The position numbers and the translations under genes are program-made. A DNA stretch of 64,000 nt from positions 1,612 to 65,611 of the forward strand of contig JAFZXK010000009.1 in the NCBI GenBank assembly GCA_017616785.1. The letters run 5' to 3'. The stretch is from Alphaproteobacteria bacterium (lineage in GTDB: Bacteria > Pseudomonadota > Alphaproteobacteria > Rs-D84). Positions 2,354 through 60,914 of this stretch are shown piece after piece (position 1 is the stretch's first letter; every line of letters begins with the position of its first letter). The notes below the pieces were generated by a model, which did not search any database, was not told the origin of the DNA, and saw only the letters and a program-made list of their open reading frames with translations.

Positions 2354-2882
2354 ACTTGGTTTTATTTTGTTCCGAATAATTTATATTTTGCGTTAGTAAT
2401 AAACGTTTTTTGATTTTATCCAACTGGTCTATCGTTTCTTGGATTTCATTGTTTTTAATTGCCTTGTCATCCGCATGCATCAATTCTGTTAGATAAAATT
2501 GAAGGTCATATACACTGTCGTTGATTATTTTTTCAAATGGGTTTTCAAATTTTTTTCCGTCTAATTTGGCCCGCACCGCATTGGATAAAGCAACATAATC
2601 TTTATCAAGACCGAACAAACGTTTTGTAACACGAATCGTTTTATAAGACGTTGTGCCTAGTTTTGTGAACACCGATTCTTCGCTATAACCTTTAATAAAC
2701 TGTTGACTGCGCGACACACTTGTATGTTCAAGTTTATATGGCCCAAATGTATAAATGGTTGTGAAATCATGGTCGTATCCATGCGCATGATTAAAATCAC
2801 CGGCGTATATCTGACCATCAGGATATGACACCACAACAGGATATTTTTGCAGCGCAGCATACATACTAATAAGTTGTTCCAT
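2352..2882 (-). CDS. hypothetical protein
   Basis: 176-aa ORF in an AT-rich patch with no motif I recognise. Confidence 0.5.
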   Translation of the reverse strand: MEQLISMYAALQKYPVVVSYPDGQIYAGDFNHAHGYDHDFTTIYTFGPYKLEHTSVSRSQQFIKGYSEESVFTKLGTTSYKTIRVTKRLFGLDKDYVALSNAVRAKLDGKKFENPFEKIINDSVYDLQFYLTELMHADDKAIKNNEIQETIDQLDKIKKRLLLTQNINYSEQNKTK

Positions 2883-2989
2883 AATGTGTCCTTTTTATTT
2901 GACTTATTTACATTATGTATCATTTTTGGCTGATGTAAAGAAAAATCTTGAAAACGGGATATTTTAATGTTAAACTGCCTTTCGCACAT

Positions 2990-3067
2990 GGCGGATGTAG
3001 CTCAGCTGGTTAGAGCGTCGGTTTGTGGTACCGAATGTCGCCGGTTCGAATCCGGTCATCCGCCCCA
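2990..3067 (+). tRNA. tRNA-His (GTG)
   Basis: Full cloverleaf. The anticodon loop TTGTGGT gives GUG. An extra G-1 pairs with C73, and CCA is encoded. Confidence 0.95.
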
Positions 3068-3080
3068 TTAAAAATTAAAT

Positions 3081-3104
3081 GCGCCACGGGCGCGTTTTAT
3101 TTTT
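3081..3104 (+). terminator. rho-independent terminator after tRNA-His
   Basis: Hairpin GCGCC-ACG-GGCGC followed by GTTTTATTTTT. Confidence 0.6.
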
Positions 3105-3335
3105 AATGTACCGGCGGTTCGGATGAGAACCGCAGGTTCGACGCGATAGCCGGTTTTGCAAACGGAGTGTGGCGAAACCGTTGCGTGCGGAAAGGGGCCC
3201 ATCTCGCCAAAGGCGGATGGGAATATACAATCCGGTCATCACACTTCGTTAAAACTTCGTGTGATAAATCCGTCTTCGCTTCACTACGTCGAGACCGGTC
3301 CGCCCCATCCGTCTTTGCTGTTGGCAAAGCCGCGA
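3105..3335. other. GC-rich structured intergenic segment made of scrambled tRNA-His fragments (decayed att repeats or an unknown ncRNA)
   Basis: Contains GGCGG-TTC-GGATG, GGTTCGA, GGCGGATG, AATCCGGTCATC (12/12 identity to the tRNA T-arm/acceptor), AATCCGTCTTCGC and CCGGTCCGCCCCAT. Several strong local hairpins are present, along with 5'/3' long-range complementarity. Confidence 0.3.
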
Positions 3336-3407
3336 TTTGTATTTGACTTTTATATATTGTGTGCTACATTGCGAACATAACAACCTACTAAGAAACAAGG
3401 CAAAAAG

Positions 3408-3914
3408 ATGCCAGACATACCAGATACAGAATATATTACGGTAAAAGCAGACGGAGTTTTTGTTGGTGGCAAACCTGCTACACATTACCGTGGTGTGAAA
3501 ATAGGTTATCGCAAATCTATAAATATAAATTTTCAGGATATTTTAAAGAAATACCCAAACATTCAAGAAATGCGTTTCTTAACATCGGAAACAGGCGGAG
3601 TGTATCACACAAATGGAAATCCCGTTGCAGAAAACGGTTCGAATGCATGGGCTTGTGTGAAGTTTGATGATGGTTATGTGTCGCCTTAGACTCTTATTTT
3701 TGAACATTATCCTTATGATTTTTTTGTGAGTCATGAAATATGCCGGAAATTACGTCTTATGGCTGATGAATATTGTTTTCTGAAACCAGTATTGGGACGC
3801 TATCAGGATGTGACATTCAGAATAAGTCTACAAAACATGGATGGGAAATCGTTCGAGTTGAATGGTTATAGGATTACGATCGAAAAGATTTCAGAACGAC
3901 AAAAAGGCAAATAA
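3408..3914 (+). pseudogene. hypothetical ORF interrupted by a single in-frame TAG (3687-3689)
   Basis: ORFs 3408-3689 and 3726-3914 are in the same frame. The 12 codons between them contain no stop. Confidence 0.4.
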
Positions 3915-3918
3915 AATC

Positions 3919-3939
3919 CCGGTCGTTTGACCGGTTTTT
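3919..3939 (+). terminator. rho-independent terminator
   Basis: Hairpin CCGGTC-GTTT-GACCGG followed by TTTTT. Confidence 0.6.
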
Positions 3940-3985
3940 CTTTTCCCTTGCCTTGGGGTTGGGAAATCGTGTATTTTTATAATGT

Positions 3986-6037
3986 ATGAAAAAAGAGTTG
4001 TTTGATTTTCTGACGACGGACCTGCAATTTATTCGCGGGGTTGGGCCGGTTTTGGCGGCACGGTTCTTTGATTTGCTGGGGAATCGGCGGATTTTGGATT
4101 TTTTGTTACATATACCCGTCTATGTCAAGGAACGCGGTGTAATCGACAGTGTTGCAACCGCAATGCCCGGCGAAATTGTCACGACCATGGTGCGGGTGAA
4201 ATCCCATAAAATTGCGCGCAATTTCGGTCGGCGGCGCGCGCCTACGCGTATTACCTGTGTTGATAAAGTTGGGCAAACGGTTGTTATTCAATTCTTTAAT
4301 TCAAATTTTTTGGATTATTGGCTGAAAAAATTGCCGATTGGCGAATGGCGCATGATAAGTGGCAAATTGGAACAAACATCAACGCCGACAATCAATCACC
4401 CTGAATTTATCGAAGAAGTGCAAAACGCCGATAAAATTCCAAAGATTCAGGCAATTTATCGTTCCGGCGAAGGGATAACACAGAAAACCTTTACAAATAT
4501 CCGCGACCAGATTTTTGCGGCATTGCCAGACAAACTCATTGGTGAAGATGAACATTTGGTGGAATTTTTTGATGCGTTGCGCAATGCGCATTATGCACAA
4601 AGCAACGATGAATTGCAATCTATGTCTGATACGATTGTAAAATTGGCGTATTTCGAATTATTGGCGCACCAGGTTGCAATCGCCGCAAACCGCCGCACGC
4701 GTAAGGACGAACGGCATCGGCGAACGCCACGCGCAAAAAAATATGATTTGTTGCCGCGCTTCTATGAATCACTGCCGTTCAATTTGACGGGCGCGCAAAA
4801 ACGCGCGGTCGATGAAATTGCGCACGATATGTCCAGCGATTTTCCGATGATGCGCCTTGTCCAGGGGGATGTCGGTTGCGGGAAAACAATGGTTGCAATG
4901 GCAGCAACGGTTATGATGGCGGAATTTGGTGCACAAACGGCGTTGCTTGCGCCAACCGATACATTGGCCGCACAACATTATGCGAAACTTAAACCGCTGT
5001 GTGAAAAACTTGGTTTAGTGTGCGATATTTTAACCGGACGCGACAAGGGCGCGGCGCGGCGCGAAAAGTTGATTTCGCTGCGTTCGGGGCGGACACGGTT
5101 GGTTGTTGGAACGCACGCACTTTTTTCCGACGATGTGGAATATAAAGATTTGGGGCTTGTGATAATTGATGAACAACATCGCTTTGGTGTCGCGCAACGC
5201 GAAGCATTACGCGCAAAGGGAAACAATCCGGATGTGTTGGCGCTTTCCGCAACGCCGATACCGCGAACTTTGTCAATGACGATTTACGGCGATATGGATG
5301 TTTCGATTATAAATGAAAAGCCCGCGGGGCGCATGCCGATAAAGACAACCAAGTTACCAATTTCGCGCATCGATGCATTGATAGACCGATTACGGGTCCA
5401 AGTAGTTAGTGGCGCAAAAGTTTTCTGGATTTGTCCGTTGGTTGTGGAATCCGAAGAATCCGACGCAACCGCCGCACAACATCGATACGAAGAATTAAAA
5501 AAAGTTTTCACATGTGTTGGTTTGGTGCATGGGCAAATGTCCAAGGATGAACGCGACAAAGTTATGGCGGAATTTGCGCGGCCGGGTTCGGATATAAAAA
5601 TTCTTGTTGCGACGACGGTAATCGAAGTTGGAATCGATGTTCCCGATGCGACAATAATTGTAATTGAAAACGCGGAACGATTTGGACTTGCGGCGTTGCA
5701 CCAATTGCGTGGGCGTGTTGGGCGCGGGGCGGCACAATCGTTTTGTATTTTGCTTTATGGCGATAATGTTTCGCCCGATGGAATCAAACGTTTGGACGTG
5801 CTGACCGAAACGAATGATGGCTTTGCAATTGCGGAACAAGATTTGATGATGCGTGGCGTCGGCGAATTACTTGGCACGCGGCAATCGGGATGGATAAATT
5901 ATCACTTTGTTGATTATCGTGGCCACAGGGATTTGTTCAAATTGGCCGCGCGTGCGGCGTCTGATATGGTTAGGGTCGAACCGTGGGTGAATGATTTAAT
6001 GTTTATATTTGATAGAACATTAAAGATAGGTGTCTAA
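3986..6037 (+). CDS. recG: ATP-dependent DNA helicase RecG
   Basis: 683 aa with Walker A GDVGCGKT, DEQH(RFGV) and QLRGRVGRG helicase motifs, plus an N-terminal wedge region. Confidence 0.95.
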   Translation: MKKELFDFLTTDLQFIRGVGPVLAARFFDLLGNRRILDFLLHIPVYVKERGVIDSVATAMPGEIVTTMVRVKSHKIARNFGRRRAPTRITCVDKVGQTVVIQFFNSNFLDYWLKKLPIGEWRMISGKLEQTSTPTINHPEFIEEVQNADKIPKIQAIYRSGEGITQKTFTNIRDQIFAALPDKLIGEDEHLVEFFDALRNAHYAQSNDELQSMSDTIVKLAYFELLAHQVAIAANRRTRKDERHRRTPRAKKYDLLPRFYESLPFNLTGAQKRAVDEIAHDMSSDFPMMRLVQGDVGCGKTMVAMAATVMMAEFGAQTALLAPTDTLAAQHYAKLKPLCEKLGLVCDILTGRDKGAARREKLISLRSGRTRLVVGTHALFSDDVEYKDLGLVIIDEQHRFGVAQREALRAKGNNPDVLALSATPIPRTLSMTIYGDMDVSIINEKPAGRMPIKTTKLPISRIDALIDRLRVQVVSGAKVFWICPLVVESEESDATAAQHRYEELKKVFTCVGLVHGQMSKDERDKVMAEFARPGSDIKILVATTVIEVGIDVPDATIIVIENAERFGLAALHQLRGRVGRGAAQSFCILLYGDNVSPDGIKRLDVLTETNDGFAIAEQDLMMRGVGELLGTRQSGWINYHFVDYRGHRDLFKLAARAASDMVRVEPWVNDLMFIFDRTLKIGV

Positions 6038-9009: not shown

Positions 9010-12787
<3,778 letters not shown>

Positions 12788-20751: not shown

Positions 20752-21780
20752 TTATATCGCTGGCCCGGCGGTAAAGTCATCACCACTGGTCGCGGCGTTC
20801 GTAAATAACGTGCCAGACACCGTATCATACATACCAAGGACATTATCAGAAATTCGTTTGCAAGGGATTAAATCTTGTATTATTACACCATCTTTTTCTA
20901 CAGTATGATGGTAAATTTTACCACTTGCTTCGTTTCCTGCTGTGCCACTATTATTACGCGCAAATAAGTAAATCGAGAGGGTATTCGCTGTAAATGTTTC
21001 AGGAGATGGTATCGTCATATTTCTCACTACTGTTCCGTCTATTGTCGCCTTCCAATTATTAGAGTTGTTAGTAGTATAAACTTTGCTAACAAATGTATGT
21101 TTATTTGTATCTTGCGGGACATCAGAAACAACTGTGGCATTAACACTAAACAAATATTGCGATGCATACGACGCTAATGTCCAACGTGGTAATGTACCAG
21201 AACCCATATAACCACATATACATAAAGGTGTTGAAGTTGAATTAACGCTATCAAAACTCGCTACTGTGGTTATTGTATAATCAAATGTTTTAGGTACAAT
21301 CCCCGTATCAATATACTGTGTCCCCGTGGATTGTATGTATTCCAACCGTGTATATCCATCGGGTAATTCACGGGCATACGCCGTTTGGTCGACGATGGTC
21401 CAAAGGTCACATATGCCCGGGTTTGCACATTCCAATTTTGTTGTGTCCGTCGTTGGTAAATTTGTAAATGTGGCGTTTAAGGCCGACGCAGTGATAAGTT
21501 TATCGCCATCCATGGCTGCATTATAACTACTCGCATCACTATACAACCCGCGTTCACCAATTTCGCCATTACCATTCGCGGTATAGGTCATTACTGTTTC
21601 ACCCGCACCACCGTTTGTTTGACCCGCCGCAGGTATCTTTAATTGTTTTGTCGCAACCTGTGTATCAACATATGCCTTGGATGATACGGTTTGAAGGTCC
21701 TCTGGCGTTGGTTCCGCAAACACACCAATAATCGTCATGAACGTACACAATACTGATGTCAATAATACCTTTTTTAGCAT
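20752..21780 (-). CDS. secreted modular protein A2 (shared N-module + variable C-terminal domain)
   Basis: Signal peptide. The N-module ...VSSKAYVDT..KIPAAGQTNGG..GERGLY..DKLITASAL..LPTTDTTKLECAN is shared with three other ORFs. C-terminal blocks YTRLEYIQSTGTQYIDTG...GMYDTVSGTLF...FTAGPAI. Confidence 0.7.
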   Translation of the reverse strand: MLKKVLLTSVLCTFMTIIGVFAEPTPEDLQTVSSKAYVDTQVATKQLKIPAAGQTNGGAGETVMTYTANGNGEIGERGLYSDASSYNAAMDGDKLITASALNATFTNLPTTDTTKLECANPGICDLWTIVDQTAYARELPDGYTRLEYIQSTGTQYIDTGIVPKTFDYTITTVASFDSVNSTSTPLCICGYMGSGTLPRWTLASYASQYLFSVNATVVSDVPQDTNKHTFVSKVYTTNNSNNWKATIDGTVVRNMTIPSPETFTANTLSIYLFARNNSGTAGNEASGKIYHHTVEKDGVIIQDLIPCKRISDNVLGMYDTVSGTLFTNAATSGDDFTAGPAI

Positions 21781-21806
21781 ATTATCTTTCCCCCCGTTTA
21801 CGGTTT

Positions 21807-22244
21807 TTAATCGCCACTGTTATTATTATCTTCATCGCCGTATACCTGTTGATCTTGGACCGTCCATAAACTGCATGTTGGGCTGTTCGCACAGGTCAAT
21901 TTTGATGTGGTCAATGTTGGCAAACTTGATACACTTCCCTTTAATGCGGATGCCGTTACCAATTTATTCGCATCTGTGTTTGCTGTATAAGTGCTTGGGT
22001 TATCGTATATTCCGCGTTCACCAATTGTACCGTTTCCGGTTGTTGTATATGTGACGACCGAAACGCCGGGCGTTCCGCTATTTGTGTTTGCCGCGGGTAT
22101 TTTGGCCTGTCTGGTTTCAACAGATGTATCAACATATGCCTTGGATGACACGGTTTTACGGTCCGTTGCCGTCGTTTCCGCGTATGCAATTCCGCCCATA
22201 AACACGCATAATGCAAATGCACATAATTTCCCAGAAATTCGCAT
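21807..22244 (-). CDS. secreted short protein A1 (N-module only, Asn/Asp-rich tail)
   Basis: Signal peptide and the same N-module as A2/B1/B2. GGGGAG RBS. It is the first gene downstream of switch A. Confidence 0.7.
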   Translation of the reverse strand: MRISGKLCAFALCVFMGGIAYAETTATDRKTVSSKAYVDTSVETRQAKIPAANTNSGTPGVSVVTYTTTGNGTIGERGIYDNPSTYTANTDANKLVTASALKGSVSSLPTLTTSKLTCANSPTCSLWTVQDQQVYGDEDNNNSGD

Positions 22245-22303
22245 GGTTCTCCCCTTTTTTCCTATGATTTACTGGCATACAAATCCGCTATTAAAAGTGT
22301 ATC

Positions 22304-22322
22304 AAAAACCAAGGTTTTTTTT
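22304..22322 (+). repeat. hix-like recombination site A-left (core AA at 22311-22312)
   Basis: GTATCAAAAACC-AA-GGTTTTTTTT. The gene-proximal half TATCAAAAACC resembles the Hin hix half-site. Confidence 0.75.
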
Positions 22323-22417
22323 ACACCACCACGGCGAAAAGTGCGAAATTTGTAATCTATTGTTTTTACTATGAAAAAAATTTTTGATTTTTTGAAAAAA
22401 GTGGTTGACTAAAAACC
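22313..22417 (+). promoter_or_regulatory. invertible cassette A; -35 TTGACT (22405-22410) faces away from operon A and toward the invertase gene
   Basis: The interior is the reverse complement of cassette B (1 mismatch over ~85 nt), while the outer flanks are collinear. Confidence 0.75.
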
Positions 22418-22429
22418 TTGGTTTTTTTT
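22411..22429 (+). repeat. hix-like recombination site A-right (core TT at 22418-22419)
   Basis: AAAAACC-TT-GGTTTTTTTT, inverted relative to A-left. Confidence 0.75.
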
Positions 22430-22538
22430 ATACCACTTAAAAAACGATGAAACCCTTATTATATCTTGCCTGTAACACAGGTGCCGATGTTTTTTCAGAC
22501 GCCTATTTTTAAGTCATTTTACACAAAAGGATAACACA

Positions 22539-23138
22539 ATGATTTATGGATATTGTCGCGTTTCAACCACGCATCAACACGAAGAAAATCAACATTTTGT
22601 CATAGAAAATTTTGCAAAGCAAAACAACATCAATATCGATTCTTGGATTGAAGAAAAAATTTCAAGTGGGCGAAAATTGCAAGACCGCAAGTTGGGCGCG
22701 CTGTTAAACGACCTTCAATCCGGCGACATATTGATTACCACAGAAATATCACGATTGGGGCGCAGTTTACTAGAGGTAATGGGAATTTTGCAAATGTGTC
22801 TTGAACGCGATTGCCAAATATGGACATTAAAAGAAAATTTTCGTTTGGGTACGGACATACAATCAAAAGTATTGGCATTTGCGTTTGGACTTTCTGCGGA
22901 ATTATCGCGTTCTTTGTTGCGCGACCGTGTGCGCGAAAGTTTGGCGCGCCTAAAAGCGGGCGGTAAAAAATTAGGACGTCCAATCGGCGCACAATCAAAG
23001 TTTTTGAAACTTAGTAAAAACAATGAACGAATAAATCTGCTAATAAGCCAGGGGATAAGTAAAAGTAAAATCGCGCGAATTATGCGCGTAAACAAAGTAA
23101 CACTTTACAATTATTTGCGAAACGCCAGTCAAATGTAA
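22539..23138 (+). CDS. small serine recombinase, Hin/Gin/Cin-type DNA invertase
   Basis: 199 aa with MIYGYCRVSTTHQ (catalytic Ser), ISRLGRS, and a C-terminal HTH (KSKIARIMRVNKVTLYNYL). Confidence 0.85.
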   Translation: MIYGYCRVSTTHQHEENQHFVIENFAKQNNINIDSWIEEKISSGRKLQDRKLGALLNDLQSGDILITTEISRLGRSLLEVMGILQMCLERDCQIWTLKENFRLGTDIQSKVLAFAFGLSAELSRSLLRDRVRESLARLKAGGKKLGRPIGAQSKFLKLSKNNERINLLISQGISKSKIARIMRVNKVTLYNYLRNASQM

Positions 23139-23199
23139 AAACCTAGATTTTATTGGCTTTATCGCTTGACATTTATATTATTTTGTCTATACTTTCCGT

Positions 23200-28632: not shown

Positions 28633-29064
28633 TTATCTCCCTTCGTCTGCTTTGTCGTACCATAACTCTCTGACAAATTGATCCAAATTACTTGTATATT
28701 CTCTTCGGACTGTCATTTCCCTCTCTTCTAACCATAGAAGTGCTTGGGTCCAATCGCCTGAATCTTGGCTATCATGTATTCCTTTCATGTGCGCCGTAAA
28801 AACCTCTATATATTTTCGTACACCGTCCGGACACTGTGGGTCAGACAAAAATTTTGACAAAAAAACGCCTACAACTCCAATATCTAGGTGATTTTTGACA
28901 GCGGCACCCCATAATTTATGTGTTTTTATTTTTGTTCTTATATAATTATTGTCTTTATCATCAAACCATACACCGAAATGAGCCGCATATCCAAATGGTG
29001 TCCCGGCATATAAATTTTTCTGTGTTCTGTCTTGAGCTAGTGTGACATTTTTTGCATTAATCAT
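28633..29064 (-). CDS. hypothetical protein wedged between queA and tgt
   Basis: 143-aa AT-rich ORF whose start overlaps the queA stop by 8 nt. Confidence 0.5.
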   Translation of the reverse strand: MINAKNVTLAQDRTQKNLYAGTPFGYAAHFGVWFDDKDNNYIRTKIKTHKLWGAAVKNHLDIGVVGVFLSKFLSDPQCPDGVRKYIEVFTAHMKGIHDSQDSGDWTQALLWLEEREMTVRREYTSNLDQFVRELWYDKADEGR

Positions 29065-30841
29065 ATGACGAATCCTTTCTAAACAATAAACAACAATCGC
29101 CGTAACTGAAAAAGCGGTATTTTTCGGCGACGGCGTGGGCGTATGCGGCTTTCATCTGCTCAAGTCCACTAAATGCCGACACCAACATAAAGAGTGTGCT
29201 TTTGGGCAAATGAAAATTCGTTAGCAGTACATCGACCGCGCGGAACTTGTAACCTGGGGTGATGAAAATATCCGTCGTTCCACAAAACGGCATGATACGT
29301 GGGGCGACACCCCGGCGGGTTTCACCCGCCACCCCTCTAGCCACCAGAGGGGAATTTTGGGCATCATCACAATACGAATTATGTTCTGTTGTAACTGTGT
29401 TGTCATATTCAGGTGCGATAAGTGAAGCGACACCCCGGCGGGTTTCACCCGCCACCCCTCTAGCCAGAGGGGAACTGAGTGTCGATGTTGCCGCCGCCAC
29501 CTCCGACAGAGGGGAATTTTTGGCATCTTCGGAATGCTTTGTTTGAAAACCAAAGCAAGTTCCCCTCTGGCTAGAGGGGTGGCACGAAGTGCCGGGGTGT
29601 CGCGATATCATATCGACAACGTTTGATACATCTTTCAAAATATCCGCGGCGGAAATATGCAATGTTGTAAGCCCCAAAGAAACCAAAAAATTTTCGCGTT
29701 TTTCGTCGTATGCACCTTTGATATCATGTGATGATTTATCGTCTATTTCAATTACCAGACCGGTTTTAGGACAGAAAAAATCAACAATATAATTACCGAT
29801 TACTGTTTGACGATTAAAATTTAATCCGTTAATTTTTTTACCGCTTATTGCACGCCACAATAACGCTTCGGGTAAACTGCCCGCTTTACGCAGGTCGCGC
29901 GCGCGTTGTTTTAGGTTTTGATTTGCTGGTAATGTTTTATAATCGACACCCCGGCGGGTTCCACCCGCCACCCCTCTGGCCAGAGGGGAACTTGCGGCGG
30001 ATTCAAGGGCGCGCAAGGATGTTGTGCCAACGGCGATTACCCGCGTGGCATTGTTGATTATGTCCGCTTGGTCGGGCGTGATACAGAACCATTCACTATG
30101 CATTTTATGTTCAGACAAATTTTCGGTCTTGACCGGCATCCAAGTTCCCGCGCCAACGTGCAAAGTTATCTTTACAATTTGTGCGCCGCGATTTTCAATT
30201 TCGTTCATCAATTCATCGGTAAAGTGCAACCCCGCCGTCGGCGCCGCCATTGACCCCAACGGATCGGCATAGACCGTTTGATAACGCGTGCTGTCGGCAA
30301 CTTCGGCTTCGCGCTTCATATACGGCGGCAGTGGCATTTTGCCCACGCGATTCAATACATCAAAAACATTATCGCAATTAAAGCACAACAACAGGCCGCT
30401 TTCGCTGTCTTTCTTTTTGACGGTTATCGTTGTTCCGTCCGTCATCGTCAATGTGTCGCCGACCTTTATTTTGTTAAATTTACGGCACAACCCCCACCAA
30501 GTTTTATCATCGACCGCGGTGTGCAATGTGATTTCGTGCGCGACACCCCGGCGGGTTTCACACGCCACCCCTCTAGCCAGAGGGGAACTTTTTATTGCGT
30601 CAAACCGCGCCGGAATAACGCGCGAATTGTTAAAGACAACAACATCACCGGGCTGCAAATAATCCAAAAAATCCCGAATATGTTTATCGGAAAGTGCGAC
30701 ACCCCGGTGGGTTTCACCCACCACCCCTCTGGCCAGAGGGGAATTTACAACCAACATGCGGGATGCGTCGCGGCGTTCCAATGGGTGCGATGCGATTAGT
30801 TCCGGCGGTAATTCAAAATCAAAATCTGATGTGTGCAGCAT
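29057..30841 (-). CDS. queA: S-adenosylmethionine:tRNA ribosyltransferase-isomerase QueA carrying in-frame palindromic-element and DUF559 insertions
   Basis: QueA blocks are present in order: FDFELPPELIASHP, FNNSRVIPAR, MPLPPY, YQTVYA, APTAGLHF, LHVGAGT, VIAVGTTS, TNFHLPKSTL, YRFFSYGD. The ORF is 594 aa, versus about 340-360 aa for typical QueA. Confidence 0.85.
   Translation of the reverse strand: MLHTSDFDFELPPELIASHPLERRDASRMLVVNSPLARGVVGETHRGVALSDKHIRDFLDYLQPGDVVVFNNSRVIPARFDAIKSSPLARGVACETRRGVAHEITLHTAVDDKTWWGLCRKFNKIKVGDTLTMTDGTTITVKKKDSESGLLLCFNCDNVFDVLNRVGKMPLPPYMKREAEVADSTRYQTVYADPLGSMAAPTAGLHFTDELMNEIENRGAQIVKITLHVGAGTWMPVKTENLSEHKMHSEWFCITPDQADIINNATRVIAVGTTSLRALESAASSPLARGVAGGTRRGVDYKTLPANQNLKQRARDLRKAGSLPEALLWRAISGKKINGLNFNRQTVIGNYIVDFFCPKTGLVIEIDDKSSHDIKGAYDEKRENFLVSLGLTTLHISAADILKDVSNVVDMISRHPGTSCHPSSQRGTCFGFQTKHSEDAKNSPLSEVAAATSTLSSPLARGVAGETRRGVASLIAPEYDNTVTTEHNSYCDDAQNSPLVARGVAGETRRGVAPRIMPFCGTTDIFITPGYKFRAVDVLLTNFHLPKSTLFMLVSAFSGLEQMKAAYAHAVAEKYRFFSYGDCCLLFRKDSSYD
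29304..29358 (+). repeat. palindromic element copy 1 (in queA)
   Basis: GCGACACCCCGGCGGGTTTCACCCGCCACCCCTCTAGCCACCAGAGGGGAATTT. Confidence 0.85.
29427..29476 (+). repeat. palindromic element copy 2
   Basis: GCGACACCCCGGCGGGTTTCACCCGCCACCCCTCTAGCCAGAGGGGAACT. Confidence 0.85.
29496..29521 (+). repeat. partial/degenerate element copy
   Basis: GCCACCTCCGACAGAGGGGAATTTTT. Only the second-hairpin half is retained. Confidence 0.6.
29558..29603 (-). repeat. palindromic element copy 3 (inverted orientation)
   Basis: AAGTTCCCCTCTGGCTAGAGGGGTGGCACGAAGTGCCGGGGTGTCGC is the reverse complement of the consensus, with a variant first hairpin. Confidence 0.85.
29943..29993 (+). repeat. palindromic element copy 4
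   Basis: TCGACACCCCGGCGGGTTCCACCCGCCACCCCTCTGGCCAGAGGGGAACTT. Confidence 0.85.
30539..30592 (+). repeat. palindromic element copy 5
   Basis: GCGCGACACCCCGGCGGGTTTCACACGCCACCCCTCTAGCCAGAGGGGAACTTT. Confidence 0.85.
30706..30746 (+). repeat. palindromic element copy 6
   Basis: GCGACACCCCGGTGGGTTTCACCCACCACCCCTCTGGCCAGAGGGGAATTT. The first hairpin carries compensatory changes. Confidence 0.85.
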
Positions 30842-37307: not shown

Positions 37308-38333
37308 CTATTGTTGTTCTTGGGGAATGTAGACATTTATTGCAGGTCCAGCGGTAAATTCACCGGTACCGATGTTAAGTTTAAATGTGTCACTAACTGT
37401 ATCATACATACCAACACTGTTTCCGGACTTTGCTGGCACACCGTTAAAGACAAGCACGTTATCTAAATAAATTTGAAATTTATAAACCTTCATTTTTGCA
37501 GGAGAGTAGTCAGCAGTATATCCAGTAAATAACATTATGTTTTTGTCTCGTCCTATATCATCTTCCATATACGTGTAGGGTGCTTCATAAACACCTTCAT
37601 CAAAAAGCAAACTAATGTTTGCATCCGATGGTGTTAGACCAGCATCAAACGTCACCACATGTCGATTTGTGTCAAAAGGGATTCTTATCTGGCTACTTGA
37701 CGAAACTGTTCCGCCCATAGAAATCCTAAATTGATTTGAATATAACCATATGGTTCCAGTTCGTCTGCCGCCCATTCCACCCCAAAGTCCAGAGACGGTG
37801 TAATCTTTCATTTTAAAATCAGCAATATATCTTACATGTTCACTTGTTCTGTATTTTATACCCGTATTAATATATTGTGTACCCGTGGATTCAATATATT
37901 CCAACTGTGTGTATCCCGCGGGCAAAATGCTATACGCACTTTGGTCGACGATGGTCCAAAGGGTGCAATCTTGATTCGCACATTCCAATTTTGTTGTGTC
38001 CGTCGTTGGTAAATTTGTAAATGTGGCGTTTAAGGCCGATGCAGTTATAAGTTTATCACCATCTGTGTTGGGGTTATAACTACTCGCATCACTATATAAC
38101 CCGCGTTCACCAATTTCACCATTACCATTCACGGTATACGTCATTACTGTTTCACCCGAACCACCGTTTGTTTGACCCGCCGCGGGTATCTTTACCTGTT
38201 TTGTTGCAACCGCTGTGTCAACATATGCCTTGGATGATGCGGTTTTAAGGTCCTCTGCCGTTGGTTCCGCAACCGCACCAAAAATCGTCATTACCGTGCC
38301 CAATATCGATGTTAGCAATACCCTTTTAAACAT
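37308..38333 (-). CDS. secreted modular protein B2 (paralog of A2)
   Basis: Same signal peptide and N-module as A2. YTQLEYIESTGTQYINTG. Divergent C-terminal domain ending GMYDTVSDTF...FTAGPAI. Confidence 0.7.
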   Translation of the reverse strand: MFKRVLLTSILGTVMTIFGAVAEPTAEDLKTASSKAYVDTAVATKQVKIPAAGQTNGGSGETVMTYTVNGNGEIGERGLYSDASSYNPNTDGDKLITASALNATFTNLPTTDTTKLECANQDCTLWTIVDQSAYSILPAGYTQLEYIESTGTQYINTGIKYRTSEHVRYIADFKMKDYTVSGLWGGMGGRRTGTIWLYSNQFRISMGGTVSSSSQIRIPFDTNRHVVTFDAGLTPSDANISLLFDEGVYEAPYTYMEDDIGRDKNIMLFTGYTADYSPAKMKVYKFQIYLDNVLVFNGVPAKSGNSVGMYDTVSDTFKLNIGTGEFTAGPAINVYIPQEQQ

Positions 38334-38368
38334 GCTACCTTTCCCCCCGTTTCCGTTACTTTGAAATC

Positions 38369-38830
38369 TTAATCATTGTTATTATTGTTACTATTATTGT
38401 TGTTACTGTTGTTATTCTCGTCACCGTATACCTGTTGATCTTGGACCGTCCATAAACTGCATGTTGGGCTGTTCGCACAGGTCAATTTTGATGTGGTCAA
38501 TGTTGGCAAACTTGATATACTTCCCTTTAATGCGGATGCCGTTACCAATTTATTCGCATCTGTGTTTGCGGTATAATCGCTTGGGTTATCGTATATTCCG
38601 CGTTCACCGATTGTCCCGTTTCCGGTTGTTGTATATGTGACGACCGCCGTCCCAAGTGTGCCGGAATTAGTGCCAGCCGCGGGTATTTTGGCCTGCCTGG
38701 TTTCAACCGATGTATCCACATACGCTTTGGACGATACGGTTTTGCGGTCTGTTGCCGTCGTTTCCGCACATGCGATTCCACACACAAACACGCATGTTAT
38801 AAATACAAATAAATTCCTAACGATTCGCAT
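38369..38830 (-). CDS. secreted short protein B1 (paralog of A1, poly-Asn tail)
   Basis: The ATG at 38830 is preceded by GGAGGA. The gene is near-identical to A1 over long DNA runs. Confidence 0.7.
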   Translation of the reverse strand: MRIVRNLFVFITCVFVCGIACAETTATDRKTVSSKAYVDTSVETRQAKIPAAGTNSGTLGTAVVTYTTTGNGTIGERGIYDNPSDYTANTDANKLVTASALKGSISSLPTLTTSKLTCANSPTCSLWTVQDQQVYGDENNNSNNNNSNNNNND

Positions 38831-38891
38831 GGTTTCCTCCCCTTTCTTCCTTTGATTTATCTGCATACAAATCCGTTGTTAAAAGTGTATC

Positions 38892-38905
38892 AAAAACCAA
38901 GGTTT
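38892..38905 (+). repeat. hix-like recombination site B-left (core AA at 38899-38900)
   Basis: GTATCAAAAACC-AA-GGTTT. Confidence 0.75.
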
Positions 38906-39005
38906 AAAATCAACCACTTTTTTCAAAAAATCAAAAAATTTTTTCATAGTAAAAACAATAGATTACAAATTTCGCACTTTTCGCCGTGGTGGTGTAAAAA
39001 AAACC
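38901..39005 (-). promoter_or_regulatory. invertible cassette B; -35 TTGATT (38908-38913, minus strand) faces operon B and pairs with fixed TGnTACACT (38884-38892)
   Basis: Minus strand reads TTGATT-18 nt-TACACT with TG at -15/-14. The RBS and B1 start lie ~55 nt downstream. Confidence 0.65.
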
Positions 39006-39016
39006 TTGGTTTTTTT
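38996..39016 (+). repeat. hix-like recombination site B-right (core TT at 39006-39007)
   Basis: AAAAAAAACC-TT-GGTTTTTTT. Confidence 0.75.
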
Positions 39017-39032
39017 ATACCACCCCTAAACA

Positions 39033-39057
39033 CAAAAAAACCGCAGATTTATGCGGT
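39033..39057 (-). terminator. rho-independent terminator after the HAD gene, insulating switch B
   Basis: Minus strand reads CCGCA-TAAATC-TGCGG followed by TTTTTTT. Confidence 0.65.
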
Positions 39058-39065
39058 ATTGACGC

Positions 39066-47112: not shown

Positions 47113-48849
47113 TCACTTTCTTCTTTGTGGTAGCCAAGATTCTTTTATATCAAGAGTCTTTGACAAACTTAATATATCTGTTATTGCTTGCTTAAATTTT
47201 TGCTTGTTAAAAAAACGACGCATGCATTCAGGCATATATTTTGTTTTTCTTAATTTCGATATACACAATTCTCTAAAGGACTTGTTATTTGAAAAACAAC
47301 AGTTTCCCAATTCTTCTAATTCTGGAGCATTTAATTTTTCGATATTTTTACTATGTCTAAAACAACCATTCCCCATTTTCTTTAATTTTGGCACATCTAT
47401 TTCCTTTATCTCTTCCGTACATTCAAAGCAATCGTCACCCATATCTGTTAATTTTGCCGCAAATAGTTTCTCAAAAATTCTATTTTTGCAAAAACATGCA
47501 TTACCCATAACTTTTAATTTCTGTGCTTGTAGCTCCTTTAGCCCGCTATTATGCATAAAGCAATTATTTTCCATTTTTTCTAATTCCGGTATATTTAACA
47601 CTGTGAGAATTTCATTTTCAGCAAAACACCCCATTTCCATTAACTTTAATCTTTGAGCGTCCAATCTCATCAAACATTTATTTCCAATAAAACAACTGCT
47701 CCCCATATTTGTTAATTCTGGTATCCATAATTTTTCGAGCATCTCAGCATTTCTAAAACACGCGTACTTCATTATACGCAACTTTGGAGCATATAATTCT
47801 CTTAACACATGATTAAAAGCCAAAAATCTTGGGGCAAGAATCTCCGCTTTATACAAATGCAAACTTGTTATACATCCTTTTTTGACCCTACACAATTCCC
47901 CTACATCTCTGTTTTCATTTATTAAATTTACTATTGTCTCACCAGTTTCAATATCCTTCTTTATTTGTATTTTATTGTTTGATATTTCGTTTTGTAATAC
48001 TTCTGGTTCATCTCTGATCAATACACTGTCTTTAACTACACTTCTTATACTTCCGTTCCGAACATCTAAAACAACCCAATCTAACATTATCTCATAACTT
48101 GTTTTCAAAGGTGTTATTTCAGAACCAGTAAAATAATATTTTTCATCAAAGTATACATTATCTATTTCATAATTAAACCTACATAATTGACCATTTATTA
48201 ACCGATAATTATCCGGCATCTTTGCTTCAGATGTCATAAAATTAACACTAAACTTACTCTGCAACGATGCCGTTAACCCAGATATTATATTATCAGGATT
48301 ATTATTAAATGTTGCATCTGGATTATTAATCGTATGATTATATCTATTTTTTATTGATATAAAACCACCAGTTTTAGCAATTTGTATAGATATAACAGAC
48401 GTTCCGTATTTATCTTCTCTCTGTGGATTTCTGCTACGTTTTATATTTTTAACATCTTTTTTTACTGCATGAATAATATAATATTGTTTATATCTATCCG
48501 GATCTTTAAAAGTACATAACTCTTCATTTGGTGCAAAATACTTTTTTATACTATTTTGTTGTTTCAACGTTTGCACATAAAAAGCATCATAACCAGCATC
48601 AGACAATAGTTCTATGGGATCTTTATTTACTTTTGGTTTTGCTCGTACTTTTTGCGCTTTTGTACGTATCTCTCTTAACACACTGATTAAATTATGCGCA
48701 TCTTTTGGATCTTTACCCGCATACTTTAATATATATTCCAAATTTGGTACATCTAGCAAAACATTTTCACGTAATATTTTTGCAAAATCTTCACCATTTT
48801 GTTTTTTTATGTTTTTATACATTTTTTCCGTATCTATAACTATAGACAT
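47113..48849 (-). CDS. BspA-type leucine-rich-repeat protein with unknown N-terminal domain
   Basis: The C-terminal ~230 aa form about 10 repeats of ~23 aa (xLxxLxxPxLxxMGxxCFxxxxx). Very AT-rich. The ATG at 48849 is preceded by GAGGA. Confidence 0.75.
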   Translation of the reverse strand: MSIVIDTEKMYKNIKKQNGEDFAKILRENVLLDVPNLEYILKYAGKDPKDAHNLISVLREIRTKAQKVRAKPKVNKDPIELLSDAGYDAFYVQTLKQQNSIKKYFAPNEELCTFKDPDRYKQYYIIHAVKKDVKNIKRSRNPQREDKYGTSVISIQIAKTGGFISIKNRYNHTINNPDATFNNNPDNIISGLTASLQSKFSVNFMTSEAKMPDNYRLINGQLCRFNYEIDNVYFDEKYYFTGSEITPLKTSYEIMLDWVVLDVRNGSIRSVVKDSVLIRDEPEVLQNEISNNKIQIKKDIETGETIVNLINENRDVGELCRVKKGCITSLHLYKAEILAPRFLAFNHVLRELYAPKLRIMKYACFRNAEMLEKLWIPELTNMGSSCFIGNKCLMRLDAQRLKLMEMGCFAENEILTVLNIPELEKMENNCFMHNSGLKELQAQKLKVMGNACFCKNRIFEKLFAAKLTDMGDDCFECTEEIKEIDVPKLKKMGNGCFRHSKNIEKLNAPELEELGNCCFSNNKSFRELCISKLRKTKYMPECMRRFFNKQKFKQAITDILSLSKTLDIKESWLPQRRK

Positions 48850-48967
48850 TTTTATCCTCACTTTATACGCAAACTATAACACAAAACAGCATATCTTTCA
48901 AACTCGCGTTTCGCCCACACACCACAACCACACTTCGCGTCTGCGACGCTTCGTGTGGCAGGCCTTA

Positions 48968-59123: not shown

Positions 59124-60914
59124 ATGCGAATGATTGATTCTTGTTTTTTGTGTCTTGATATCGGCACATGCGGTGTCCGCGGAATTGCGCACCGCATAAG
59201 GAACGCGATGATTGATAAATCCGCATATTATTCGGTTGATGATTTTGATACTGTATTGGCACTAAAATCTGTGGCGGACGAACTTGAACAACAAATGGGA
59301 ACACATTTTGATACTGCATACATAACTGGAAATTTTGGAACCGCATTTTTCAACATATCAACCAAAGAAACAAAATGGGCAAACGAACATAAAATCACAC
59401 CGTCCGATGTGAAATCTCAAATTGCACAAATTGATGCGCCCGATGATTTTTACCCAATGCACATAATACCGTTGCGATACGACACACCAAACGCAAGAAA
59501 TATTTTAACACCGATTGGACAAAATGATACAAAACTTACTTCAACAATTTCTGCACTTTTTTTTGAAAAAGACCGTATGCAAAAATTGCTAAGTTTATTG
59601 CGCCAATCGCACATACAACCGTCGGCCTTTTACGCACCGCAATTTCTTGAATCAAATGTTTTGCGTAAAAAGAAAACAAATGTAATGTTCGTCGATTTTG
59701 GTGCCGAACACACAACCGCATCAATTTGGACGGACCGCGGCCCGGTTTGGTACGACGGGCATTTTATTGGTGGCACTGATTTAACATCGGAAATATCAAC
59801 AAAACTTGATATACCTTTTGCCGAAGCCGAAAGGATAAAACGCAATGTTGCAAACCTTTATTCAAATGAAATGGCACGATTCAGCCCGGCCGACAGCGCA
59901 TACGCATTTTCTTGCGCCGATGTAAATGAAATTGTTGTTCCGTTTTTCTATAACCTTGTTGAACAAATAAAAAACGATTCGGCAAGGTACATTGAAAAAT
60001 ATCAGCCAACCGAAATAATCATAACCGGCGGTGGCGCACGGTTAAACGGAATTGTTGAATTGCTATCGCAAACATTTGAAATTCCAATAACACAAACAGG
60101 CCCCGACACAAATGTTCGCGCACTTGCAAAATACATATGGGAATCGGCACGCCCATATCGTCGCGCATACATTGCACGCCTTAGACGGTGGCAACGAATC
60201 ACAAATAAAATTTTCGGTGTTTTGAACCATCGCAAACCGAAACAGAAAAAACGCCAAACCATTGTTCCGATTATGCCAAGCACGCTTTGCTTTGATATGT
60301 CGCGACCGGAAACATATACAATGTTCCGCGCCGGCGGAATATCGGCAATACATGTTGATATTATGGACGGATTGTATGTTGATAAAATCACCGGCGGTAT
60401 CGAAGAGTTACGAAAAATTCGTGCAAATTGGGCGGGACATTTACATGTTCATTTAATGACCGACGCACCATCGGCATGGGCAACCGACGCAATCAACGCG
60501 GGCGCGGATACGGTTATACTTTCAACAAACACCGTCGGATTGCGACGTGCGGTTCAAATTGTGAAACACGCCGGCAAACGCGTTGGCATCGCATTAAACC
60601 CCGAATCTTCGGTATCATTGTTAAAAACTATTTTGCGCGATATCGATGAAATTATGGTTATGGGTGTACCACCCGGCGCCGCGGGTCAAAAGTTTAATAT
60701 GAATGTGTTAAATAAAATATCAGTCCTTGCGGGAACACGCAAAAAGTACGGACTTCGATTTGTAATATCTGTCGATGGCGGAATCAACGACGAAACCGCG
60801 CGCCTTTGTTGGGGTGCCGGTGCGGACGCACTGGTCAGTGGTTCATACCTTGCGCACGCACCCGACTTTCCACTTGCGGTAATGTCATTATTGCCATCGG
60901 CGAAAAGTATTTAA
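59124..60914 (+). CDS. FtsA fused in frame to ribulose-phosphate 3-epimerase
   Basis: N-terminal ~365 aa: LDIGTCGVRG, FVDFGAEHTT, GGTDLTSEIS, IIITGGGARL, and an amphipathic RRWQRITNKIFGVL. C-terminal ~215 aa: PSTLCFDM...IHVDIMDG...HLMT...LNP...MGVPPGAAGQKF...SVDGG. Confidence 0.8.
   Translation: MRMIDSCFLCLDIGTCGVRGIAHRIRNAMIDKSAYYSVDDFDTVLALKSVADELEQQMGTHFDTAYITGNFGTAFFNISTKETKWANEHKITPSDVKSQIAQIDAPDDFYPMHIIPLRYDTPNARNILTPIGQNDTKLTSTISALFFEKDRMQKLLSLLRQSHIQPSAFYAPQFLESNVLRKKKTNVMFVDFGAEHTTASIWTDRGPVWYDGHFIGGTDLTSEISTKLDIPFAEAERIKRNVANLYSNEMARFSPADSAYAFSCADVNEIVVPFFYNLVEQIKNDSARYIEKYQPTEIIITGGGARLNGIVELLSQTFEIPITQTGPDTNVRALAKYIWESARPYRRAYIARLRRWQRITNKIFGVLNHRKPKQKKRQTIVPIMPSTLCFDMSRPETYTMFRAGGISAIHVDIMDGLYVDKITGGIEELRKIRANWAGHLHVHLMTDAPSAWATDAINAGADTVILSTNTVGLRRAVQIVKHAGKRVGIALNPESSVSLLKTILRDIDEIMVMGVPPGAAGQKFNMNVLNKISVLAGTRKKYGLRFVISVDGGINDETARLCWGAGADALVSGSYLAHAPDFPLAVMSLLPSAKSI

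Follow-up and report, generated by a model that had tools for sequence, protein, structure and literature searches.

We propose that an uncultured gut alphaproteobacterium varies its surface through one small serine invertase acting on dispersed promoter switches. The stretch analysed here, hereafter the window, comprises 64,000 nucleotides of contig JAFZXK010000009.1 (assembly GCA_017616785.1), and its source is a gut member of the Candidatus Enterousia group (Alphaproteobacteria, order Rs-D84). It encodes a 199-residue invertase related to Mpi and carries two 107-bp switches with predicted split promoters, A and B, each placed before an operon for secreted proteins. The likely explanation is multi-locus phase variation, in which this single enzyme would turn both surface-protein operons on and off. 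In the mechanism that we propose, the invertase probably binds paired gix/hix-like sites that lie 107 bp apart in inverted orientation, and probably flips the DNA between them. The segment would bring only the upstream half of a promoter, namely an UP-like A-tract and a -35 element (TTGAC/TT) overlapping one inner half-site; the fixed flank beside the target genes would supply the -10 element TACACT. One orientation would complete the promoter (ON), and the other would set the -35 element against a flank that lacks the essential T at -7 (OFF). Each switch would control a two-gene operon for secreted proteins with a common N-terminal domain, the larger protein being LamG lectin-like and a presumed adhesin. 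The same invertase would catalyse inversion at both A and B, and it would do so without Fis or an enhancer, aided by a DNA-bending factor at the block ATTGTTTTTA.

The crossover sites stand out clearly from the background. With up to one mismatch allowed, the pattern AAAACCNNGGTTTT has six matches in the window against 0.57 expected, and none of 100 shuffles reached six. Four of the matches are true sites of the form AAAACC-AA/TT-GGTTTT and make up the two switches (Table 1), which are separated by 16,588 bp. Their cores lie at 22311-12 (AA) and 22418-19 (TT) in A, and at 38899-900 (AA) and 39006-07 (TT) in B. The core-to-core distance is 107 bp in both switches; at all four sites we thus find a hix/gix-type sequence whose 2-bp core is inverted relative to that of its partner, which fits the 2-bp staggered cut of serine recombinases. 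An earlier interpretation made from the letters of this DNA, the sequence-only reading, had given the four sites a common A-tract-ACC-NN-GGT-T-tract design, and this design indeed matches the centre of the gix sites of phage Mu, which read AAACC-TC-GGTTT and AAACC-GA-GGTTT at the annotated boundaries of the G segment. The same reading had put the invertase gene about 110 bp from the right-hand site of A; counted from the last base of the core (22419), which lies upstream, to the ATG at 22539, the distance is 119 bp. The two remaining matches (23138 and 33969) have one mismatch each and no partner, consistent with chance. The former, AAAACCTAGATTTT at 23138-23151 with a TA core, overlaps the stop codon of the invertase gene and was considered as a fifth site; it is not conserved in relatives and is probably a chance match or a relic. 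The relatives often have a terminator hairpin 3' of the invertase gene at this place. Literature searches on crossover-site sequence and on the Mpi repeat consensus found no papers.

The first direct sign of flipping lies within the window. The 93-bp interior of A, between the 14-bp site cores, is identical at 90 of 93 positions (97%) to the reverse complement of that of B, which means that A and B are best read as copies of one cassette in opposite states. Switch B also occurs both ways in nature: the window and contigs L019-L021 have one orientation, and L022, from another sample, has the opposite one. In L022, the B-specific flank with the HAD gene is joined to the other end of the segment, the flanks are identical, and B's own variant TTGATTTTAAACC is present. 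The invertase-adjacent switch of relatives behaves in the same way, as L010 and L012 share the same invertase protein and near-identical flanks with the segment inverted between them, and L071 and L073 differ likewise. Both orientations, the hallmark of an invertible switch, have thus been found for B and for the invertase-adjacent switch of relatives. Contigs also end at or near the sites (L005, L009, L023, L070, L079), L005 and L009 flanking A on either side in one sample. No inversion between A and B was seen among the fetched contigs.

The promoter appears to be split by the recombination site. In an alignment of 42 distinct switches, both crossover sites are conserved beyond what the search pattern forces, and TGAAAAAARTGG is conserved immediately upstream of TTGAYT; we take this block to resemble the proximal subsite of an UP element. 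The -35 element overlaps the inner half-site, and the -10 element lies outside the segment, in the fixed flank. We therefore scored 50 distinct switches by a flank rule, under which a hexamer with A at -11 and T at -7 must stand 16-18 bp from the -35 element. The target-gene flank supplies such a -10-like hexamer in 42 of 48 cases, against 8 of 52 for the other flank, and these eight exceptions are contig-end cases in which the gene is not visible. The hexamer on the target flank varies by lineage (TACACT, TACCAT, TATACT, TATAAT, TAGAAT), which argues for selection for function and not shared ancestry alone. By this rule, switch B would be ON and switch A, with its 145-aa/342-aa operon, would be OFF in the window, the promoters assigned to the switches being composed of predicted elements throughout. 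A canonical TTGACA-16-TATACT at 23166-23193 indicates that the organism uses sigma-70-type promoters. A different arrangement is seen in L080 (ena:ERZ27298330:k141_299559, 1-1358), where a switch lies between two divergent genes of the secreted-protein family described below and both flanks carry a target-type half-site and a -10 element; this suggests a two-way toggle in place of an ON/OFF switch, as well as past exchange between cassettes.

The genes facing the switches point to the cell surface. The 145-aa and 342-aa proteins of operon A have a common N-terminal domain, which we name 'SSKAYVD'. This family has 891 homologues, none of them with a Pfam domain, and both pairs in the window (145/342 aa and 153/341 aa) are members; the N-terminal ~140 residues (SSKAYVD...KIPAA) are conserved and the remainder is variable. 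In the AlphaFold2 model of the 342-aa protein, the predicted local distance difference test score exceeds 90 only for residues 140-341, a C-terminal LamG/ConA-like jellyroll whose fold matches are sialic-acid-binding CBM40, laminin-G and pentraxin domains and viral lectin-like tail proteins. On the strength of this predicted fold, a role as adhesins or lectins is plausible for the SSKAYVD family. The invertase-adjacent switch of relatives lies before a gene for a trimeric autotransporter adhesin (YadA_anchor), and most switches without an adjacent invertase face secreted proteins of the SSKAYVD family. The window is atypical, as its invertase-adjacent switch faces the SSKAYVD family and not an autotransporter; in the closest reference genome, JAZRLA01, an invertase with 91% identity faces an autotransporter gene, and the 145-aa orthologue is found at an invertase-less switch. 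Operon B also varies among strains. Its 153-aa gene is called on L019-L020 as well, and there (2876-4169) the identical 153-aa gene is followed by 291-aa and 121-aa genes and then RmuC; the counterpart in the window (37308-38333) is the 341-aa gene, followed by an M48 peptidase gene.

Counts from relatives support one enzyme serving several switches. A collection-wide search with the inner half-site plus -35 element, AAARTGGTTGAYTWWWAACCTWGG, a strict pattern whose counts are lower bounds, gave 38 matches, all in Candidatus Enterousia/Rs-D84 alphaproteobacterial metagenome-assembled genomes from gut metagenomes of ruminants and horses. Genomes of this order, which includes Candidatus Enterousia, are about 0.75-1.0 Mb in size with reduced metabolism (PMC12306168). 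Nine switches were found in JAZLAT01 (one with an adjacent invertase), five in JAGHVG01 (none), four in JAKSTC01 (one), three each in CADCKW01 (one) and CAMVAR01 (none), two each in JAZURV01 (none) and JAZRLA01 (one), and a single switch apiece in the other genomes. By tblastn, an adjacent invertase is present at 13 of the 38 loci, with never more than one such locus per genome, and the window invertase as query found no paralogue beside the other 25. At one locus, L046, the invertase is probably cut off by the end of the fetched stretch. Judged from the switch loci and their adjacent stretches, each genome would have one invertase.

Within the window, too, the invertase appears to be alone. 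The sequence-only reading could find no other recombinase in the 64 kb, and no second one was found here among the Pfam domains of the genes on a metagenome contig that carries the identical invertase and spans ~12.5-33 kb of the window, or in Pfam scans of the other large open reading frames. Six-frame tblastn with recombinase queries gave nothing further, which is a weak test, as the Hin query missed even the invertase. The accompanying claim, that this one enzyme serves both A and B, is supported and not proven: the sites are near-identical, B flips with no neighbouring recombinase, and relatives have up to nine switches with at most one adjacent invertase. Another possibility is that the invertase acts on A only, and that B is flipped by a recombinase encoded outside the 64 kb, such as a paralogous invertase. 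Several master invertases coexist in Bacteroides (PMC4747536), which favours a separate enzyme for B, as does the inner half-site of B-left, which differs from that of A at two positions. However, the sites and segments of A and B are 97% identical, and the one-invertase pattern of the 38 loci speaks against a second enzyme; we consider this possibility unlikely.

The family placement of the enzyme bears on how it might work. A hidden Markov model search, a check suggested by the sequence-only reading, matched Pfam Resolvase at E 2e-30 over residues 2-143; the match to HTH_7 (E 1e-4) scored 22.8 bits, slightly below the 23.8-bit cutoff, and the C-terminal part of the protein aligns with the helix-turn-helix of Gin and Hin. 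The motifs YCRVSTTHQ, which contains Ser9, and ISRLGRS are present, and R7, S9, D63, R72 and R75 are invariant across the invertase, Gin, Hin and gamma-delta resolvase in an alignment in which, of these references, Gin was verified against phage Mu. The open reading frame is thus a small serine recombinase, as had been proposed. Its label 'Hin/Gin-type' suits the crossover sites, which are gix/hix-like, but not the protein, whose identity in the alignment is 28% with Gin and 26% with Hin, and 31% with Mu Gin by BLASTP. Hin, Gin, Cin and Pin are ~60-70% identical among themselves, and the window invertase does not show a close relationship of this kind to them; relative to Hin and Gin, six residues are inserted after residue 27, and the linker that leads to the helix-turn-helix is extended by ~7 residues. 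The NCBIfam model NF009949 ("master DNA invertase Mpi family serine-type recombinase"), in contrast, is matched end to end (positions 1-196 of 203) at E 4.9e-77 and 258.2 bits, against a curated equivalog cutoff of 272. Given this near miss, we describe the enzyme as Mpi-like, or as belonging to a sister group of the Mpi family. Mpi had been treated as an analogy; the likeness is probably one of homology. The nearest invertases, from source entries named "Alphaproteobacteria bacterium", are 75-97% identical, and that of Bacteroides phage B124-14 is 48% identical. Among the next-closest invertases (48-53% identical: phage B124-14, MT836935), no comparable switch was found upstream, and pattern matches occur only inside or just past the invertase gene.

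A classical Hin/Gin-type system, with a Fis-like protein on an enhancer in cis and an enzyme of the Hin/Gin/Cin/Pin group, would agree with the gix/hix-like crossover sites and with Gin as the top match among solved structures (PDB, 8e-11). The low identity to Hin and Gin and the strong match to the Mpi model argue against it. So do the lack of a Fis homologue in 684 kb of clade DNA, a weak negative, and the invertase-less switches, which are separated from the invertase gene by tens of kb or more and each have a conserved interior of their own. We regard such a system as very unlikely. The sequence-only reading had been concerned that no Fis-bound enhancer could be identified, and none was recognised here either; the concern is probably moot, because the segment, at 107 bp, is too short for a classical enhancer and no Fis homologue was found in the clade DNA. 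To our knowledge, Fis is essentially a gamma/beta-proteobacterial protein. Finally, the repeats could be small mobile elements, relics of old rearrangements or products of RecA-mediated inversion, and a length of ~137 bp, terminal inverted repeats and many copies per genome would suit a mobile element, but this is highly improbable, since the same locus is found both ways between identical flanks in different samples, all copies precede a secreted-protein gene by a short, fixed distance and have the -10 element on the side of that gene, the invertase gene is linked to one copy per lineage, and repeats of 14-17 bp are short for RecA.

Several points weigh against multi-locus phase variation by one Mpi-like invertase. 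The 64 kb in view belong to a genome of ~0.9 Mb, which also favours a separate enzyme for B. Switch A was found in a single orientation, that of the window, across four assemblies. A sigma-70 scan misses the predicted ON promoter of B, as TTGATT-18-TACACT scores 8 of 12 at a threshold of 9. The invertase has Ser where gamma-delta resolvase has the conserved Asp D67, and the phage B124-14 invertase does likewise; in addition, the score of the window enzyme lies below the cutoff for formal membership in the Mpi family. The loop of 107 bp is shorter than the invertible segments listed in PMC5903667 (154-314 bp). Helically phased A-tracts were considered as a cause of bending and rejected, with no excess power at 10-10.5 bp; the A-tract spectrum has a peak near 9 bp, in sequences that are mutually related.

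The short segment makes the geometry of synapsis the central mechanistic question, as ~80 bp of DNA is left to loop between two bound sites. The block ATTGTTTTTA is conserved at the geometric centre of the segment in the 42-switch alignment. In A it lies at 22359-22368, with the midpoint between the cores at 22365, and the same block is found in B at 38950-38959 on the opposite strand. The block shows no match to the IHF consensus; a bending or accessory protein may bind it, and a bending protein would need to act at this position. An IHF-alpha-like gene (42% identical to E. coli IhfA) is found in L037 at 3444-3710 (JAKSTC010000003.1), 84 bp downstream of the invertase, which is suggestive at most, and HU/IHF-like genes lie within 1-2 kb of invertase-less switches in L041 and L058. 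Core-to-core spacings vary continuously over the range 106-111 bp, and further ones are 121 and 130-136 bp; thus no fixed helical phase is conserved.

The cores themselves give a further clue. A palindromic TA core (AACC-TA-GGTT at both sites) occurs in ~40% of distinct switches (L013-15, L024-26, L030, L033, L036-38, L045-46, L050, L063, L065, L068-71, L073-74, L076). This means that core asymmetry cannot enforce inversion over deletion in these switches, and loop geometry must do so. Given the likeness between the sites of A and those of B, the enzyme must as a rule keep A from synapsing with B; recombination between A-left and B-left would cost the cell 16.6 kb of essential genes. Exchange between cassettes may still occur on rare occasions. 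Taken together, these features could describe an enhancer-free minimal switch: a segment of 107-111 bp, bent at its central block, carrying a -35/UP half promoter that is parted from its -10 element by the recombination site, with one Mpi-like enzyme driving at least nine switches and occasional toggles (L080) to vary adhesins in a 0.9-Mb genome. Partners ~107 bp apart would be chosen by loop geometry and not by a Fis invertasome, even with TA cores. We put this forward tentatively, as a real possibility that falls somewhat short of probable.

The invertase may also control its own amount. All lineages carry ACCAC-TTGACA/TTGAAA-N17-TATATC after the outer half-site nearer to the invertase gene, with a weaker -35 element (TTAAAA) in the window. 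A hairpin with a folding free energy of -9 to -16 kcal/mol and a T7 run lies 26-37 nt before the ATG, and its stem sequences differ among lineages (e.g., L010, ~9930-9975). These hairpins were seen by folding each sequence singly, as RNAalifold gave no consensus structure on the gap-rich alignment; in the window, a scan flagged 22467-22483 as terminator-like. The leader resembles a promoter with the enzyme's own binding site across it and an attenuator behind it, an arrangement suggestive of autoregulation, and the terminator-like hairpin and overlapping site would keep the invertase scarce. The OFF orientation of A was considered as a driver of the invertase gene and judged unlikely, because the junctions TATACC, TAGACC and TTGAAC all lack the T at -7 and a terminator-like hairpin precedes the ATG.

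Table 1. Features of the two switches, the invertase gene and the target operons in the window (promoter elements and terminators are predicted).
Feature	Position	Strand	Details
Target operon A, two secreted proteins	20752..22244	-	145 aa (21807-22244) and 342 aa (20752-21780); signal peptides in translations
Switch A, left crossover site GTGTATCAAAAACC-AA-GGTTTTTTTTACAC	22297..22326		Outer half overlaps fixed -10 TACACT, minus strand, 22296-22301
Switch A (whole)	22297..22433		
Switch A, invertible segment, 105 bp between cores	22313..22417		-35 TTGACT 22405-22410 (+), UP-like GAAAAAAGTG 22394-22403, aimed at the invertase
Switch A, right crossover site GTTGACTAAAAACC-TT-GGTTTTTTTTATAC	22404..22433		
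Invertase promoter and leader	22436..22538	+	-35 TTAAAA 22437-22442 abuts outer half-site; -10 TATATC 22460-22465; hairpin with T-run 22467-22495; then ribosome-binding site
Small serine DNA invertase, 199 aa, Mpi-like	22539..23138	+	Ser9 nucleophile, probable C-terminal helix-turn-helix; from Pfam, NCBIfam, PDB match and alignment
Target operon B, paralogue of operon A	37308..38830	-	153 aa (38369-38830, start MRIVRNL) and 341 aa (37308-38333)
Switch B, no adjoining recombinase gene	38885..39021		-35 TTGATT 38908-38913 (-) faces fixed -10 TACACT 38884-38889 (-)
Intrinsic terminator of converging HAD-hydrolase gene	39040..39064	-	Shields switch B from read-through

Overall, the window is ordinary chromosome of 42% G+C, with genes for DNA ligase, LysRS, Tgt, QueA, Era, MurJ, ThyA, an RND pump, UvrB and others. 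In the QueA gene (29057-30841, minus strand, 594 aa), a DUF559 endonuclease-like domain splits Queuosine_synth into two halves, which may be a domain insertion. A 596-aa open reading frame at 59124-60914 on the plus strand has FtsA-like and ribulose-phosphate 3-epimerase domains, and represents a fused gene or, alternatively, two genes that lack an intervening stop codon. Two further candidates for surface proteins, an autotransporter beta-domain protein and a BspA-type leucine-rich-repeat protein, are found at 95-1153 and 47113-48861, both on the minus strand, with no recognisable switch upstream of either.

Phase variation by a single enzyme at many loci would carry the "master invertase" strategy, so far of Bacteroides, to uncultured, genome-reduced gut Alphaproteobacteria. 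It flags the trimeric autotransporters and a large uncharacterised LamG-lectin family as variable surface, and thus gives a lead to the attachment to host or partner cells. It also poses the question of how a serine invertase synapses sites 107 bp apart, apparently without Fis. In addition, a split-promoter switch of ~137 bp is very compact and could serve as a genetic part. One genome paper on Enterousia (PMC12306168) makes no mention of an invertase, recombinase, phase variation or adhesin.

Among known systems, the Hin/Gin/Cin/Pin group (Salmonella hin; phages Mu and P1; e14) shares with the window the domain layout, the central site design of A-tract-ACC, 2-bp core and GGT-T-tract, and the position of the recombinase gene beside a switch. 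It differs in the protein, given the 26-31% identity and the insertion and longer linker of the window enzyme, and in its segments of 1-4 kb. In classical Hin/Gin systems, a single local segment is inverted, and an enhancer bound by Fis is required. The RecV recombinase of Clostridioides difficile serves several sites (PMC5903667). Together with fimS and FimB-FimE of E. coli, the Cdi/RecV switches resemble those of the window as short invertible promoter elements that turn surface structures ON or OFF; unlike the window enzyme, their recombinases are tyrosine recombinases, and the segments are 154-314 bp long. In fimS, the segment contains the entire promoter. In Mycoplasma penetrans, small invertible promoters next to the genes are thought to switch most of the 38 surface lipoprotein genes of the mpl (P35) family independently of one another (PMC2268961, citing Horino 2003). 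This is likewise a host-associated bacterium with a reduced genome, of a different phylum and with different repeats. Its candidate enzymes, MYPE2900 and MYPE8180, are tyrosine recombinases. A possible mechanistic parallel, to be taken as a lead only, is offered by Beta recombinase and Sin, serine recombinases that are aided by HU/Hbsu-type bending between close binding sites and that are mainly resolvases with accessory recombinase-binding sites.

The closest parallel is Mpi of Bacteroides fragilis. Its 13 dispersed target regions include seven promoters of capsular polysaccharide loci (PMC4747536). Both systems have a small serine invertase, and the logic that we propose, one enzyme for many surface-structure switches, is that of Mpi. 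For Mpi, the repeat consensus is ARACGTWCGT, with a span of ~170-230 bp; the sites in the window are of the gix/hix type, AAACC-NN-GGTTT, and the segment, at only 107 bp, appears to hold half a promoter. In place of a Bacteroidete, the host is a genome-reduced alphaproteobacterium, and the targets are adhesin-like proteins and not capsule loci. Within a like logic, the differences from Mpi are the phylum, the very small genome, the gix/hix-type sites, the tiny segment, the predicted split promoter and the adhesin-like targets.

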